Assembly: GCA_948524275.1 (NCBI GenBank)
Contig: CAOSLI010000001.1
Location: forward strand, 329,198 to 393,197
Origin: an uncultured Clostridia bacterium
GTDB taxonomy: Bacteria > Bacillota > Clostridia > TANB77 > CAG-508
Length of the DNA: 64,000 nucleotides
Direction of reading: 5' to 3'
A program made the translations under genes and the position numbers. Under the pieces are notes generated by a model. That model had not been told where the DNA came from. It saw only the letters and a list, made by a program, of their open reading frames with translations, and did not search any database. This document shows positions 15,216 to 45,038 of this stretch, piece by piece (position 1 is the first letter of the stretch; each line of letters starts with the position of its first letter).

Positions 15216-16220
15216 ATGAAAAAAGAAACAGGAAAGTATTTGGCTATATTATTAGGAATTATTTGTTTAATTTTAGCAATAATCTTAATCTATGTAAAGG
15301 TTATGGCAGCAGATAATAAAGCAAGTGAAAAAGATCTAAATAATAAAATTGAAGAAGAGGTAAAATATCTTGACTCAAACCTTATAAGTTTAATGAACAA
15401 ATTGAATAATATTACAGTAATCAATTATAAGGTATATACAAGAGAAATAAATGATTCATCTTCTAATTCAGCAGAAAGCTCTGGAAAAGGGAATTCATCT
15501 TCATCAATGCAACAGGGAAACTCTAGTAGTGGAGAGTCTTCTGGACAATCGCAACAAGGAGGAGGTTCTTCTGGACAAGGAAGCTCTGGAGGTCAAGGTG
15601 GTTCTCAAAGTCAAAATGGTGAGGGGTCATCTTCAGGCAGTTCTAAACCGATAACTGTATCAGAGTTGATACCTAATACAATTTTGTCTAATAATAGTGA
15701 AACTGATTGGACTGAGCTTGCTTATTTATTAGAAAATATATATTCAACATGGCCAACAATTAGTTTAGATTTAAAAGAAAAAGGTATTGCTGTTGATATG
15801 ATAGATTCATTTTCATTATCAATGAATGGAGCGATACAATCTCTTAAAAATCAAGATAAGAACAATACCTTAATAAATTTATACAATATGTATATAAACT
15901 TACCTAAATATATAATTTCTATAACTAATGACGCAGGAAAGGTTAATTTATATAATACTAAAGCAAATATATTAAATGCATATGTACTAGCAACAACAAG
16001 TGATAAATGGAATGATATAACTAATAGCATAATAGAAGCTAAGAACAATTTTAATACAATTTTGACAAGTGAAAATAATGACAGAAGCGAAAAAAATAAT
16101 TTGCAAAAAACATATGTTATAATGGAAGATTTAGAAAGAGCAAGCAAACTTAATGATAAAGATATATTTTTAATTGGGTATAAAAATGTTATTGGTCAGT
16201 TTCAAACAATGAAAGAATAA
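15216..16220 (+). CDS. Membrane-anchored hypothetical protein with Ser/Gly/Gln-rich low-complexity linker
   Basis: N-terminal TM helix, about 70-aa S/G/Q-rich disordered segment (15470-15650), globular C-terminal domain; no recognisable family. Confidence 0.5.
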   Translation: MKKETGKYLAILLGIICLILAIILIYVKVMAADNKASEKDLNNKIEEEVKYLDSNLISLMNKLNNITVINYKVYTREINDSSSNSAESSGKGNSSSSMQQGNSSSGESSGQSQQGGGSSGQGSSGGQGGSQSQNGEGSSSGSSKPITVSELIPNTILSNNSETDWTELAYLLENIYSTWPTISLDLKEKGIAVDMIDSFSLSMNGAIQSLKNQDKNNTLINLYNMYINLPKYIISITNDAGKVNLYNTKANILNAYVLATTSDKWNDITNSIIEAKNNFNTILTSENNDRSEKNNLQKTYVIMEDLERASKLNDKDIFLIGYKNVIGQFQTMKE

Positions 16221-16281: not shown

Positions 16282-18441
16282 ATGAATATAGTACAAATAA
16301 TAGCAAATGAATTAAGCATAAGGGAAACACAAGTTTCAAAGACAATCGAACTTATTGATAGTGGTAATACAATTCCATTTATAGCAAGATACAGAAAAGA
16401 AGTTACTGGAAACCTAAGTGATGAGGTTTTAAGAAATTTAAATGATAGATTAACTTATCTTAGGAATTTAGAAAATAGAAAGGAAGAAGTTAAGACATCA
16501 ATAGAAAATCAAGGAAAACTTACAGATGAAATAGTAGCAGATTTAGAAAATGCAATGACTCTAGCAGAAGTAGAAGATATTTATAGACCATATAAGCAAA
16601 AGAAAAAGACAAGAGCAATCATAGCTAAACAAAGAGGATTAGAGCCTTTAGCCAACAATATTTTAGAGCAAAAGGATAGTACAGACATTGAGGAAGTAGC
16701 TAAAGAATTTATAAATGAAGAAGTACCAACTGCTGAAGATGCAATTCAAGGCGCAAAAGATATAATAAGCGAAATCATATCTGATGACCCTGATTTCAGA
16801 AAGAAAATTAAGAGTACATATTATAGAGAAGGAATAATTGAGACAACTGCATCTAAGCCTGATGAGAAGTCGGCTTATGAAATGTATTATAAATTTGAAG
16901 AAAGAATATCTTCAATACCAAGCCATAGAATTTTAGCAATAAATAGAGGAGAAAAAGAAGAATTTTTAAAAGTTAAGCTAAGAAAGCCTGATGATAAAAT
17001 TATAGAAATGATATGCAAAAAAATGATAATATCTTCAGGAAAAAGAGCAACACTAATACAAGAGGCAGCAGAAGATAGTTATTCAAGACTAATTGAGCCA
17101 TCAGTAGATAGAGAAATTCGTTCAGATTTAACTGAAAAGGCAGATAAACAAGCAATAATGGTATTTGGAAAAAATGCAAAACAACTTCTATTAGGAGCAC
17201 CACTTAAAGGTTTAACAGTACTAGGATTTGACCCAGCATACAGAACTGGATGTAAATTAGCAGTAATTGATGAAACCGGAAAAGTGCTAGACACTGGTGT
17301 TGTATATCCAACAGAGCCACAAAATGATATAGAGGGTGCAAAAAAAGAGCTAATTAGACTTATAACAAAAGATAAGATAAACATGATTGCAATTGGAAAT
17401 GGAACAGCATCAAGAGAATCTGAGATGTTTGTATCAGATACTATAAAAGAAGTTAAAGAAAAGCTTGGAATTGATGTATATTATGCAATTGTTAGTGAAG
17501 CGGGAGCATCAGTTTATTCTGCATCAAAGCTTGCAACAGAAGAATATCCAGATTTAAATGTATCAATAAGAGGAGCAATTTCAATAGCAAGAAGATTGCA
17601 AGATCCTTTAGCAGAATTCGTTAAAATTGATCCAAAAGCAATAGGAATCGGACAATACCAACATGATGTAGACCAAAAACAATTATCAGAAAGCTTATCA
17701 GGAGTTGTAGAAGACGCAGTAAATGAAGTTGGTGTAGATGTTAACACTGCAACTGCGCCACTACTTTCATATGTATCAGGAATAAACTCAGGAATAGCCA
17801 AAAACATTGTAAAATACAGAGATGAGCAAGGCAAATTTAAAGAAAGGAAAGAGCTTCTTAAAGTCCCTAAGCTAGGAAAAGTTGCATTTGAGCAATGCGC
17901 CGGATTTATTAGAATACCAAATGGTAAAAATCCACTAGAAATAACAGCAGTTCACCCTGAAAGTTATGAAGTCGCTGAAAAGCTTTTAGAAAACATAGGA
18001 AACAAAAAAGAAGATATATTAGACAAAGACAAATTAAAAGATATAAGAACTAAATTATTAGCGATAAATGTTGCTAAAACTGCCACAGAACTTGATATAG
18101 GAGAAATAACATTAAAAGATATAATAGCTGAACTTTGTAAACCAGGTCGTGACCCAAGAGAAGACATGCCAAAGCCAATTCTTCGTAGTGATGTATTAAA
18201 ATTTGAAGATTTAAAAGAAGAAATGGTACTAACAGGGACAGTTAGAAATATTACTGATTTTGGAGCATTTGTTGATGTTGGGGTAAAACATGATGGATTA
18301 GTACACATATCAGAAATGAGCGATAAATTCGTTAAAAAGCCATCTGATATTGTATCTATTGGAGATATTGTAAAGGTAAGAGTAATTGGAATCGATTTTG
18401 AAAAACAAAAAGTTAAGTTGTCAATGAAGGATATAAAATAA
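16282..18441 (+). CDS. tex: Transcription accessory protein Tex (S1 RNA-binding domain)
   Basis: 719 aa; YqgF/RuvC-like and HhH domains, C-terminal S1 domain (GTVRNITDFGAFVDVGVKHDGLVHISEMS). Confidence 0.9.
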   Translation: MNIVQIIANELSIRETQVSKTIELIDSGNTIPFIARYRKEVTGNLSDEVLRNLNDRLTYLRNLENRKEEVKTSIENQGKLTDEIVADLENAMTLAEVEDIYRPYKQKKKTRAIIAKQRGLEPLANNILEQKDSTDIEEVAKEFINEEVPTAEDAIQGAKDIISEIISDDPDFRKKIKSTYYREGIIETTASKPDEKSAYEMYYKFEERISSIPSHRILAINRGEKEEFLKVKLRKPDDKIIEMICKKMIISSGKRATLIQEAAEDSYSRLIEPSVDREIRSDLTEKADKQAIMVFGKNAKQLLLGAPLKGLTVLGFDPAYRTGCKLAVIDETGKVLDTGVVYPTEPQNDIEGAKKELIRLITKDKINMIAIGNGTASRESEMFVSDTIKEVKEKLGIDVYYAIVSEAGASVYSASKLATEEYPDLNVSIRGAISIARRLQDPLAEFVKIDPKAIGIGQYQHDVDQKQLSESLSGVVEDAVNEVGVDVNTATAPLLSYVSGINSGIAKNIVKYRDEQGKFKERKELLKVPKLGKVAFEQCAGFIRIPNGKNPLEITAVHPESYEVAEKLLENIGNKKEDILDKDKLKDIRTKLLAINVAKTATELDIGEITLKDIIAELCKPGRDPREDMPKPILRSDVLKFEDLKEEMVLTGTVRNITDFGAFVDVGVKHDGLVHISEMSDKFVKKPSDIVSIGDIVKVRVIGIDFEKQKVKLSMKDIK

Positions 18442-18532
18442 ATTACTTATTTTTGGAAAAATGCTTGACATATCAATTTTTGGGATATATAATAAATATA
18501 TCAACAGATTATTCATATATATGTAAACACTA

Positions 18533-18566
18533 AAAAAGACTAGGACTGCATTTCCTAGTCTTTTTT
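18533..18566. terminator. Bidirectional intrinsic terminator (tex on + strand; small peptide gene on - strand)
   Basis: A6-GACTAGGA-loop-CCTAGTC-T6. Confidence 0.8.
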
Positions 18567-18574
18567 CCGTATTG

Positions 18575-18643
18575 TTAGTTATCTTTATCATGTATAATTA
18601 CATATACTATGATAAGTGCTAACAACTTCAACAAACTGTTCAT
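18575..18643 (-). CDS. 22-aa hydrophobic peptide MNSLLKLLALIIVYVIIHDKDN (type I toxin-like small ORF)
   Basis: AGGAGG SD 12 nt upstream, ATG start. Single TM-like segment with a charged tail. A paralogous ORF is present at 44853..44927 with the same flanking architecture. Confidence 0.45.
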   Translation of the reverse strand: MNSLLKLLALIIVYVIIHDKDN

Positions 18644-18655
18644 TATATGTAAACG

Positions 18656-18719
18656 CCTCCTTTCTACCTTTTATGAAGAAAGGCTACCATATAATACCAT
18701 GATGTCGAATAAATGTCAA
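18656..18719 (-). promoter_or_regulatory. Sigma-A-like promoter and SD-sequestering 5' UTR stem for the small peptide ORF
   Basis: Minus-strand TTGACA (18714-18719) - 17 nt - TATTAT (18691-18696). The leader forms CCTTTCT/AGAAAGG stem overlapping the AGGAGG SD. Confidence 0.4.
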
Positions 18720-18770
18720 TAATTGACAAAAATAAATAATTTAATTTATAGAAAATAAAATTACGAAAAT

Positions 18771-18799
18771 TTGACAAAATAATAAAAAGATAGTAAAAT
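18771..18799 (+). promoter_or_regulatory. Promoter of rnpB
   Basis: TTGACA - 17 nt - TAAAAT, about 7 nt upstream of predicted P1 start. Confidence 0.5.
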
Positions 18800-18805
18800 A
18801 AAATT

Positions 18806-19168
18806 TAGTAAATCAAATGGTCGCGCTATTTCAATGCCGAAAGGCGAAAAGTGAGGAAAGTCCGGGCCCCATAGAGCAGGATGCTTGATAACGTCAAGTG
18901 AGGGTAACCTTAAGGAAAGTGCAACAGAAAATAACCGCCGTGAATGAAATTAATTTCAGGCACGGTAAGGGTGAAAAGGCGAGGTAAGAGCTCACCGTAG
19001 ATGTAGTGATACATCTAGCCGTGTAAACCCCATCTGGAGCAACACCGAGACTAGGAGAAATAAAGTGGCTGCTCGTCATCTCCTTAAATTGGTGGCAAAG
19101 AGTCATATAGCAATATATGTCCAAGATAAATGACCATTCTTCGACAGAACCCGGCTTACAGATTTACT
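18806..19168 (+). ncRNA. rnpB: RNase P RNA (bacterial type B)
   Basis: P1 pairing AGTAAATC(18806-18813)/GATTTACT(19161-19168); universally conserved GAGGAAAGTCCGGGC (P4 5' strand) at about 18854; 3' P4 strand ACAGAACCCGGCTTA; T-rich tail; about 363 nt. Confidence 0.8.
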
Positions 19169-19348
19169 ATTTTTTATTGATATCAGTATTTTAATATTAT
19201 GTAAAATGAATTATTTGGATAATAATCTATTACAAAAACAGAATAAGCAAGACTGAAAAGTCACATAATAAAATTAGTACAAATTAAAATGTACTAATTT
19301 TTCATGTGTATTTTTAATACAAAGTAAAATTATAAGGAGGGAATTAAA

Positions 19349-20728: not shown

Positions 20729-20790
20729 TTTCAACCAATAGGGACGTGCACTTTTGGTTGACCACAGGTACACGTCCCCATTGGTTGAAA
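20729..20790. repeat. GC-rich palindromic intergenic repeat, copy 1
   Basis: Inverted arms TTTCAACCAATAGGGACGTG / CACGTCCCCATTGGTTGAAA around TTTTGGTTGACCACAGGTACACG; shares GGGACG/CGTCCC and TTTTGGTYGACCA motifs with copies at 46598, 49546, 62153. Confidence 0.8.
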
Positions 20791-20804
20791 TCAGGAGGCG
20801 TAAA

Positions 20805-22035
20805 ATGAAGAGACCAGAATTATTAGCACCAGCAGGTTCTTTTGAAAAAGCAAAGGAAGCATTTTTATATGGAGCAGATGCAGTGTATTGCGGGACAGGT
20901 GAATTATCACTAAGAAGTAGAGCAGAAGTTGATAATGAGAGCTTAGCAAAAACAATTGAATATGCACATAGCAACCGGAAAAAAAGTATATACAACAATT
21001 AACATATATGCACAAGATAGCATGTATGATGATATAAAAAAACAAGTAGAAATGCTTGATAAATTAAAAGTTGATGCAGTAATTGTATCAGACGGCGGCA
21101 TTGTAGATATTATAAAGGAGATAGCACCTAATATTCCTATACATATTAGTACGCAAGCAAATACTTTAAGTGCACACACAGCAAGATTTTGGCAAAAGAA
21201 TGGTGCGTCAAGAGTAATTCTTTCTAGAGAAATGAATAAAGAGCAAATAAAAGACTTAATAAATAATATTCCACAAGAGTTAGAAACTGAAATTTTCATA
21301 CATGGAGCAATTTGTTGGGCTTATTCAGGAAGATGCTATTTAAGTGATTTTTTATCTTGCAGAAATGCGAACTTAGGAGATTGTGCACAAAGCTGTAGAT
21401 GGGCATATAACGTTTATATAGAAGAAAAAAATAATCCAGGAAATATTATGCCAGTTGAAGAAGATAGTAATGGAACATATATATTGTCATCAAAAGATTT
21501 ATGCCTAATTAAAAATATTCCAGATATCATAGAAATGGGCGTAACTAGCCTTAAAATAGAGGGAAGACTTAAATCAGAATATTATTTAGCAAGTGTTGTA
21601 AATGCATATAGAAATGCAATAGATGACTATATGAAATTACCCGAAAATTATGACTATACTAAATATTTGAAAGAATTAGAGAAAGTTAAAACTAGAGATA
21701 TAACGCAGTTCTTTTTTGAGGATAAGAATAATAAGGATTTCCAAGAATTCGAGGGAAAACAATATAACCCAGAGTATGAATATGGAGCACAAGTACTAGA
21801 ATATAGCGAAGATAAATCTATTGTAAAGATAGGAAATAAATTGAATATAGGCGACAAAATGGAAATAATAATTCCAAATAAAATAGAGCCAGTAGAATTT
21901 ATTATAGATAAGATGTGGGATACAGAGACGGATGAAGAAATAGAGACTATAAATCCGGGAAAAGTAGGACAGACTGTAAAGATGCACTTACCAATTAAAT
22001 GTGAAGAAGGCTGGATGATTAGAAGAAAAAAATAA
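20805..22035 (+). pseudogene. Peptidase U32 family protein (collagenase-like), disrupted by +1 frameshift
   Basis: N-terminus MKRPELLAPAGSFEKAKEAFLYGADAVYCG...EYAHSN (frame 0, ends TAA 21000-21002) continues in frame +1 from about 20977 as GKKVYTTINIYAQ...DAVIVSDGGIVD. The shift lies at AACCGGAAAAAAAGT (20973-20987, A7 run). RBS AGGAGG before ATG 20805. Confidence 0.7.
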
Positions 22036-44689: not shown

Positions 44690-44816
44690 TTTTTTATAGT
44701 CTATTATTACATCTGACAATTAGGTTAAAATTAAATGCATTATTTTGGAAAAAACTTGACAGTCAAAAAAAAAAATGTTATTCTATATATAGTTAATAAA
44801 TTTCAATGATGTAAAA

Positions 44817-44850
44817 AGACTAGGAAATGTCACTTCCTAGTCTTTCACCT
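44817..44850. terminator. Hairpin terminator shared by typA (+) and small peptide gene (-)
   Basis: A5-GACTAGGAA-loop-TTCCTAGTC; near-identical stem sequence to the terminator at 18533-18566. Confidence 0.65.
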
Positions 44851-44852
44851 TT

Positions 44853-44927
44853 TTACTCTTTATTTTTATTGTCATCTACAATTATGTATAATATGATAAG
44901 AGCAATCATTTGTATTATAAACTTCAA
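44853..44927 (-). CDS. 24-aa hydrophobic peptide (M)KFIIQMIALIILYIIVDDNKNKE, paralogue of the 18575..18643 ORF
   Basis: TTG start 8 nt after AGGAGG SD. The TM-like core ALII.Y.I is shared with the peptide at 18575..18643, with the same terminator-peptide-SD-stem-promoter layout. Confidence 0.45.
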   Translation of the reverse strand: MKFIIQMIALIILYIIVDDNKNKE

Positions 44928-44934
44928 TGATGTC

Positions 44935-44999
44935 ACCTCCTTTCTACCTTATAAAGTGAAAGGTTTTTATATAATATAACAAAAAATGACATATGTCAA
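44935..44999 (-). promoter_or_regulatory. Sigma-A-like promoter and SD-sequestering leader for second small peptide ORF
   Basis: Minus-strand TTGACA (44994-44999) - 17 nt - TATTAT (44971-44976); leader CCTTTCA...GGTAGAAAGGAGG with conserved GGTAGAAAGGAGG block identical to copy 1. Confidence 0.4.
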
Positions 45000-45038
45000 T
45001 ATTTGGATAAAATATATCATAAATAATGGAGAAAATAA

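Follow-up and report, generated by a model that had tools for sequence, protein, structure and literature searches.

The par locus of plasmid pAD1 of Enterococcus faecalis, with its chromosomal homologs, provides the closest described comparison for the element studied here. In par, the toxin mRNA and its antisense RNA are transcribed from convergent promoters toward a shared bidirectional terminator, and oppositely transcribed direct repeats lie over the toxin initiation site. A 5′ stem-loop hides the Shine-Dalgarno sequence (SD) until the antisense RNA binds, and there is a separate 5′ upstream helix (PMC7472228). We analyzed a 64-kb stretch of DNA from an uncultured Clostridia bacterium (contig CAOSLI010000001.1; the whole stretch is referred to as the window) and found two copies of a module in which a gene for a hydrophobic peptide of 22–24 residues faces a predicted antisense RNA gene. 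Quite probably, both copies are type I toxin-antitoxin-like loci that follow the par/Fst-RNAII plan. From the sequences compared, our confidence is high that the element is an antisense-repressed, par-type small-peptide locus and moderate that the peptide is a toxin. The comparisons described below give good support for treating it as a family that is new but of a known kind, namely type I toxin-antitoxin-like loci under par-type regulation.

Other described systems share parts of this arrangement. The antisense RNAs of Fst/RNAII and of SprA1 lie at the 3′ side of the toxin gene, do not overlap the open reading frame (ORF) and pair outside the overlap of the two RNAs (10.1101/2021.04.14.439843, the T1TAdb paper). 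In SprA1/SprA1as of Staphylococcus aureus, which encodes the peptide PepA1, the antisense RNA is made from the 3′ end of the toxin gene, and its non-overlapping 5′ domain pairs with the translation initiation region (TIR) of the toxin mRNA and represses translation (10.1101/2021.04.14.439843). The txpA/RatA, bsrG/SR4, bsrE/SR5 and bsrH loci of Bacillus subtilis also resemble the module, having tail-to-tail RNAs in intergenic regions and encoding small, hydrophobic peptides whose C-terminus is charged (PMC2965217). Finally, Fst-like sequences have been reported in Clostridiales (e.g., Clostridium bolteae) as part of an Ldr/Fst family with conserved small residues and a conserved Trp (Fozo et al.).

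Layout of the two loci

The two module copies occupy positions 18447–18728 and 44745–45008 of the window, with the peptide gene on the minus strand in both. A whole-module profile search of the window returned exactly these two copies (E values of 9e-39 and 2e-34), which align with 80% column identity and are identical in the promoter hexamers, the hairpin and SD, the peptide core and the terminator stem. The 15-mer AAGGTAGAAAGGAGG is common to both copies (2 occurrences vs 0.21 expected). The initial annotation of this DNA had placed a module of about 190 bp at the first position. The location was right but the extent was not, as an antisense arm and a convergent promoter on the plus strand also belong to the module and make it about 90 bp longer. 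The promoter, SD-overlapping stem, SD, 22-codon ORF and terminator that it described are all present where it had put them, and the second copy of the same architecture that it reported is real (44999–44815, with a 24-codon TTG-initiated ORF).

In copy 1, the toxin promoter (18691–18719, minus strand) has the form TTGACA-17-TATTAT with a TG extension and gives an inferred transcription start site near 18684. This predicted start coincides with the foot of a 5′-terminal hairpin (18656–18683, minus strand). In its minimum free energy fold, CCTTTCT (18683–18677) pairs with AGAAAGG (18665–18659), so that the hairpin covers the first 3 nt of the SD AGGAGG (18661–18656). The peptide ORF (18575–18643, minus strand) contains 22 codons and a stop and encodes MNSLLKLLALIIVYVIIHDKDN. 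It is followed by an intrinsic terminator (18532–18566) with a 14-bp stem. Because the stem is flanked by A6 and T6 the hairpin can act on both strands; the scan reported it as a plus-strand terminator and its minus-strand action is taken from the symmetry. As predicted, this terminator would be common to the toxin mRNA, the antitoxin RNA and tex, the convergent neighboring gene. The corresponding elements of copy 2 are a minus-strand promoter (44971–44999, TTGACA-17-TATTAT), a 5′ hairpin (44936–44963, minus strand) in which CCTTTC (44963–44958) pairs with GAAAGG (44944–44939) and which overlaps the SD AGGAGG (44941–44936), an ORF with a TTG start, 24 codons and a stop (44853–44927, minus strand; MKFIIQMIALIILYIIVDDNKNKE), and a shared terminator hairpin, assigned to both strands, at 44815–44845.

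The initial annotation had stated that no antitoxin RNA could be annotated from the sequence. That statement does not hold, as each copy has a dedicated convergent promoter on the plus strand, located between the stop codon of the adjacent gene (tex or typA) and the shared terminator and pointing at the toxin gene. The promoter of copy 1 (18465–18493, TTGACA-17-TATAAT) matches the consensus at 12 of 12 positions and lies 24 nt past the tex stop codon, and that of copy 2 (44756–44784, TTGACA-17-TATTCT, with a TG extension) is downstream of typA. The predicted antitoxin small RNAs (sRNAs) would be about 73 nt (18500–18572, plus strand) and about 66 nt (44791–44856, plus strand) long, with ends inferred from promoter and terminator. 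Both consist of an unstructured 5′ arm (18500–18532 in copy 1) followed by the terminator hairpin, and the copy 1 sRNA is predicted to stop short of the toxin stop codon. Judged from these predicted transcripts, all three properties that the T1TAdb paper gives for Fst/RNAII appear to hold here. The tex and typA transcripts had been proposed as the antisense partners; with a predicted sRNA gene of its own at the locus, this role becomes secondary, though read-through from tex or typA would carry the same antisense sequence because there is no terminator between their stop codons and the shared one. Directly upstream of the antitoxin −35 element, both copies carry TTTTGGAAAAA (18450–18464 and 44741–44755, plus strand) and other loci have A/T-rich tracts at the same position, which may represent an UP element.

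Each locus contains a DNA direct repeat, with one copy at or beside the toxin start codon and the other just past the terminator. In copy 1 the repeat is 11 nt long and exact (18644–18654 and 18518–18528) while in copy 2 it spans 17 nt with 94% identity (44917–44933 and 44796–44812). Since the two repeat copies are read from opposite strands, the sRNA arm is complementary to the toxin TIR. The predicted target site of copy 1 (18627–18658, minus strand) begins in the last SD bases, crosses the start codon and reaches codon 6. The computed duplex has an energy of −28.9 kcal/mol and involves nt 27–58 of the toxin mRNA, in which the SD is at nt 24–29 and the AUG at nt 42. For copy 2, the target site at 44917–44933 (minus strand) covers the TTG start, and the duplex, of −20.5 kcal/mol, is formed by nt 31–49 of the mRNA, with the UUG at nt 38. 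When partners are swapped between the window copies the energies are only −15.3 and −9.0 kcal/mol; hence each sRNA is predicted to prefer its own partner.

Overlap between sRNA and toxin mRNA is confined to the terminator region (about 35–45 nt), with the additional complementarity at the TIR. In the txpA/bsrG-type systems a 3′ overlap of about 100 nt holds the pairing, whereas here the key pairing is predicted at the TIR via the direct repeat. The likeness to TxpA and BsrG that had been suggested is therefore weaker, as the pairing in those systems lies inside the 3′ overlap. The likeness to Fst that had been suggested alongside is borne out in the RNA architecture, though not in the peptide, which has no PXXXG motif and no Pfam match. 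Four of five RNA-level features of par are found, namely the convergent promoters, the shared terminator, the direct repeats at the TIR and the SD-hiding 5′ stem-loop. The fifth, the separate 5′ upstream helix, was not found in the folds of either copy, in which the 5′ end is the foot of the SD hairpin. The two roles that par divides between its upstream helix and its SD stem-loop here appear to fall to a single 5′ hairpin. In addition, par has two repeats, DRa and DRb, whereas the loci described here have one interrupted repeat of about 19–32 nt. The length of the sRNA is a further similarity, being short in both systems.

Two side observations concern the repeat and the terminator. A 56-codon ORF past the copy 1 terminator (18421–18591, minus strand), which is without an SD, includes MNNLLIYLLYI, which through the direct repeat echoes the toxin N-terminus. 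The antitoxin arm may thus have originated as a duplicate of the toxin gene's 5′ end. In copy 2, the terminator loop and 3′ stem (ATGTCACTTCCT; 44827–44838) repeat the complement of the SD region (ATGTCACCTCCT; 44930–44941), so that the terminator hairpin of the copy 2 sRNA could also pair with the toxin mRNA SD. This SD-complementary repeat was not seen in the copy 1 terminator.

The annotated antitoxin RNAs offer no match to these sRNAs. Searches with the antitoxin RNA families of Rfam 15 gave none at the gathering threshold or at E values up to 10. The best sub-threshold Rfam candidate, the Bacillus sRNA ncr1015, aligned to copy 1 only (18463–18569, plus strand; 31.9 bits vs a gathering threshold of 60; E 0.006), from the antitoxin promoter through the terminator. 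We judged this match to a sRNA without known function to be a chance likeness of promoter and terminator and rejected it.

Co-variation and coding conservation among related loci

To place the module among other genomes we scanned one genome per species (185,579 species) with the pattern CCTTTCN{5,10}AGGTAGAAAGGAGG. The scan returned 97 stretches, of which 95 are in metagenome-assembled genomes (MAGs) of uncultured Clostridia from animal and human samples, corresponding to about 79 assemblies as counted from accession prefixes. The module is absent from the two remaining stretches, one from Cloacimonadota and one on a cyanobacterial contig, and these were set aside as chance matches.

The sequence of the direct repeat varies among the loci and yet is matched inside each locus. 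The exact repeat has a median length of 11 nt within a locus, compared to a median of 7 nt and a 95th percentile of 9 nt between loci. Arm-TIR duplex energies show the same pattern, with a median of −25.7 kcal/mol for own pairs vs −10.6 kcal/mol for 5838 cross-locus pairs; 95% of the own pairs have a lower energy than the 5th percentile of the cross-pair distribution (Mann-Whitney p about 1e-50). The own duplex spans positions −4 to +11 around the start codon in 79 of 79 loci analyzed and −7 to +20 in about 85%. We regard this within-locus co-variation as the strongest single argument that the predicted antisense RNA exists and acts at the start site.

The promoters and hairpins are retained as well. 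The toxin −10 element ends 7–8 nt ahead of CCTTTC in 79 of 83 modules, and a convergent promoter with at least 10 of 12 consensus matches and 17-nt spacing, almost always of the form TTGACA-17-TAnnnT, lies 74–92 nt beyond the toxin stop codon in about 80 of the 83. Antitoxin promoters match the consensus more closely than toxin promoters, on average at 11.1 vs 10.6 of the 12 positions (Wilcoxon p 8e-4). In minimum-energy folds the hairpin pairs the AAAGG of the SD AAAGGAGG in 74 of 79 modules, the 5′-side positions that the pattern leaves free are mostly CC, facing the fixed GG, and the terminator stems of related loci contain compensatory variants.

An in-frame ORF of the family is present in 83 modules, with 22 codons in 69 of them, 23 in 11 and 24 in 3, and encodes peptides with the consensus MKxLLKLLKLxxIYLIVKxLxx. 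Among the 66 unique 22-codon ORFs, the entropies at the three codon positions are 1.08, 0.45 and 1.32 bits and the stop at codon 23 is present in all 66. Synonymous changes make up 31% of the codon differences in this frame vs 20% and 5% in the other two frames. The codon-position entropies, the fixed stop and the synonymous excess together indicate that the peptide ORF is under protein-level selection. The suggestion that the window holds a type I toxin-like module in two paralogous copies thus gains support, at the level of sequence, from an in-frame ORF with a coding pattern in 83 modules. The ORFs are conserved in frame in related genomes, which speaks against the possibility, raised with that suggestion, that they are not.

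These data also bear on whether the module might be an intergenic repeat that accompanies terminators, or what is left of a miniature mobile element, in which the ORF is incidental and the direct repeat a duplication scar. A strong bidirectional terminator is always present at the 3′ end of a neighboring gene, direct repeats flank the unit and its genomic positions vary, all of which would fit such an origin. This reading is contradicted by the in-frame ORF with its fixed length and clear codon-position pattern, and by a repeat that is matched within each locus and fixed over the start codon, as a decaying scar would not be; moreover, two near-consensus promoters are kept at fixed distances. 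We give this explanation hardly any credence. A transposon target-site duplication as the origin of the direct repeat was rejected for a similar reason, as the repeat is matched within the locus across about 80 diverged loci.

The position of the module is not conserved across species: tex was found within 8 kb in only 2 of the 97 loci. Genomes carry from one to several copies, sometimes in tandem. Contigs encoding the neighboring DUF1540-like protein are 100% identical to the window over the module and offer nothing for comparison.

The peptide and its probable action

The family peptides combine a hydrophobic run of 8–13 residues with a short charged or polar tail of 4–7 residues. The initial annotation had described a single transmembrane-like helix; the peptide is indeed hydrophobic, but that description was generous. 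The longest non-polar run, defined as lacking charged and strongly polar residues, is 11 residues in the window copies and 8 in most relatives (52 of the 83 peptides), compared to 15 in Fst and 19 in PepA1 by the same measure. The helical hydrophobic moment is 0.55–0.62, vs 0.40 for Fst and 0.22 for PepA1, and in the majority consensus MKDLLKLLKLYLIYLIVKHLSD Lys2, Lys6 and Lys9 fall on one helical face.

Likeness to Fst at the peptide level is limited to a start with Lys and Asp or Asn and a charged C-terminal tail. Fst has 33 residues and the peptides here 22–24; the host of par is E. faecalis whereas the hosts here are uncultured Clostridia. The PXXXG(C) motif in the hydrophobic domain, which is essential for Fst and Lpt toxicity (PMC7472228), is present in 0 of the 83 peptides, and Pro is found beyond position 3 in none of them. 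Nor was the conserved Trp found, as Trp occurs in 6 of the 83 and at no fixed position. None of 76 distinct family peptides matched the Pfam family Fst_toxin (PF13955) at E values up to 10, whereas Fst and PepA1, used as positive controls in the same test after their sequences had been checked against PDB 2KV5 and 4B19, gave E values of 9e-5 and 3e-5. An hhalign comparison with Fst yielded a probability of 1.9%, with the alignment confined to the N-terminal MKDL. By these sequence comparisons the peptide is no detectable homolog of Fst. PepA1 differs in the same way, being a member of the Fst_toxin family with its long non-polar run, and the txpA/bsrG-type peptides differ in being about 30–59 residues long, with a transmembrane segment of about 20 residues, and in being encoded in prophage regions. 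A small size and copy number similar to those seen here are known from Ibs/Sib of Escherichia coli, in which a hydrophobic type I toxin of about 19 residues is encoded in several chromosomal copies, each with a cognate antisense RNA. The Sib RNA, however, is antisense to the entire ibs ORF and the system is Gram-negative; sequence similarity between Ibs and the present peptides is not expected.

Broader searches were likewise negative. Pfam and NCBIfam scans with the two window peptides gave nothing relevant, a profile search of the PDB returned only a chance match (E 8), an exact look-up in a collection of 15 billion proteins contained neither window peptide, and a full-text literature search with the peptide motifs found no paper.

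General features of type I systems are nevertheless recognizable. The sequence contains a hydrophobic ORF of fewer than 60 residues with its own promoter and SD, and a cis antisense gene with its own promoter and terminator, and pairing able to block translation, are predicted. Sequence and comparison define two promoters, a hairpin, an ORF under selection, a terminator used in common and complementarity specific to each locus, and from these elements we propose the following mechanism. The sigma-A promoter would produce a toxin mRNA of about 150 nt, whose first nucleotides would fold into the hairpin, protecting the 5′ end and burying part of the SD, and which would encode a 22–24-residue hydrophobic, Lys/Asp-capped peptide. 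The stronger convergent promoter would produce an sRNA about 70 nt long, terminated at the shared bidirectional hairpin. First contact between the RNAs would likely occur at the terminator hairpins, where they are fully complementary, after which the 5′ arm of the sRNA would pair with the toxin mRNA from just past the SD, over the start codon and into codons 6–8. This pairing would block ribosome binding and maintain a translationally silent complex for as long as the sRNA is replenished. Loss of the sRNA, through decay or an end to its synthesis, would allow translation of the peptide, which would then act on the membrane. The parts of this model that we infer are transcription itself, where the RNAs start and end, the sequence in which they pair, how stable they are relative to each other, and the toxicity of the peptide.

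Several points weigh against a par-type toxin locus. Hairpin and SD are written into the search pattern by which the related loci were collected, and their conservation cannot count as independent evidence. Occlusion of the SD is partial, as the hairpin leaves its final AGG unpaired, and the T-run of the copy 2 terminator is not continuous on the plus strand (TCTTTCACCTTTTT). A non-polar run of 8–11 residues is short for a membrane-spanning helix, and no similarity to any known type I toxin was detectable by Pfam, NCBIfam, the PDB profile or hhalign against Fst. In addition, the hosts are all uncultured, and promoters and RNA ends are predictions.

The shortness of the peptide and of its hydrophobic run leads to the question of whether it is a toxin at all. 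It might instead be a small protein with a physiological role at the membrane or in regulation, for instance one that modulates a membrane complex or takes part in a stress response, with its level tuned by the sRNA. The strong conservation of peptide length and sequence is what would be expected for a specific interaction, and both window modules are chromosomal and sit beside core genes (tex-rnpB and typA-methyltransferase), with no match to the module in blastn searches of plasmid and phage collections. However, double repression, by an SD hairpin and by a TIR-blocking sRNA made from the stronger promoter, is typical of harmful products, and the variable genomic position and the multiple, sometimes tandem copies also argue against it. 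As described below, unrelated peptides occur on the same chassis elsewhere, to which interchangeable toxic cargo is better suited than one housekeeping partner. Overall, we think it unlikely that the peptide has such a non-toxic role.

The amphipathic character of the peptide would also fit a secreted, bacteriocin-like or phenol-soluble-modulin-like product acting on other cells, for which the antisense RNA would time production. The 22-residue length, the lysine face and the hydrophobic moment above that of Fst and PepA1 are in line with this. But there is no leader or processing motif, neither copy has transporter, immunity or modification genes beside it (the neighbors being tex, rnpB, typA and the methyltransferase gene), and the arrangement of the regulatory elements matches type I toxin-antitoxin loci. 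A secreted peptide is in our view highly improbable. For the toxin that we favor, membrane action need not mean a classical pore. Because the LxxIYLIVK core has only 8–11 consecutive non-polar residues, flanked by lysine, the peptide may be a surface-active or oligomerizing amphipathic helix or may act on a specific target.

Other peptides on the same chassis

The same leader (CCTTTC..AGGTAGAAAGGAGG), the convergent consensus promoter and the arm complementary to the start codon also serve an unrelated peptide class beginning M[TS]S[YF]DLIW..., with 26–33 residues, a polar or acidic tail and two hairpins after the ORF. The arm duplexes of this class range from −22 to −32 kcal/mol. It was found at five MAG loci (L006, L017, L047, L053 and L095) and on three IMG/VR viral contigs (L100, L101 and L103), and in part on a fourth, L102; it is this class that the viral contigs carry. 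Two singleton peptides, MQNFKNFIILLLELCILKLILRILKELDK and MYEELVKRIKTYFALFNYKFNK, stand behind the same leader and antisense design at loci L016 and L069, respectively, which suggests a portable repression cassette with exchangeable cargo. In this clade of uncultured gut bacteria, the number of unrelated peptides that the cassette may have taken up is at least two or three, including the phage-borne M[TS]S[YF]DLIW... class. We put forward only tentatively, as one possibility among less favored ones, the fuller reading that the peptide with the LxxIYLIVK core is a new family and no classical membrane-spanning pore former, joined to a leader, terminator and antisense arm that form such a cassette. 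If it is true, evolution and spread would proceed at the level of the regulatory RNA chassis rather than of the toxin.

In the window itself, the genes flanking the module were identified by Pfam as Tex (copy 1) and TypA/BipA (copy 2), with an O-methyltransferase as a further neighbor. The RNase P RNA gene rnpB (class A; 18805–19174, plus strand; 280 bits in Rfam) has its own promoter, TTGACA-17-TAAAAT, at 18771–18799, back-to-back with the copy 1 toxin promoter; rnpB and one tRNA were the only Rfam matches found at the gathering threshold. Upstream of tex, at 15216–16220 (plus strand), lies the gene for a protein of 334 residues, hydrophobic in an N-terminal segment and with a long low-complexity region rich in Ser, Gly and Gln; no Pfam match was found for it. 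The peptidase U32 gene at 20754–22035 (plus strand) appears to be split into overlapping ORFs in different frames (20754–21002 and 20956–22035) and is called likewise in the identical contigs L001 and L002; the split may reflect a frameshift, a pseudogene or recoding.

For the annotation of this genome, the module accounts for two strong 'orphan' promoters and for the bidirectional terminators beside tex, rnpB and typA. More broadly, a type I toxin-antitoxin-like family can now be described for a large clade of low-GC, uncultured gut Clostridia sampled from hosts that include humans, mice, rabbits and goats. No such system has so far been annotated in this clade, and peptides of this size fall under the length limit of gene callers. 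At each locus the predicted toxin mRNA, sRNA, pairing site and terminator are all defined, and the approximately 80 natural variants with locus-specific, co-varying complementarity represent a specificity series for par-type recognition of cognate vs non-cognate sRNAs. If toxic, the 22-residue peptide would rank with the shortest type I toxins and would provide a minimal model without the motif that is essential in Fst. The regulatory principle is already known; what is new is the peptide family in an uncultured clade.

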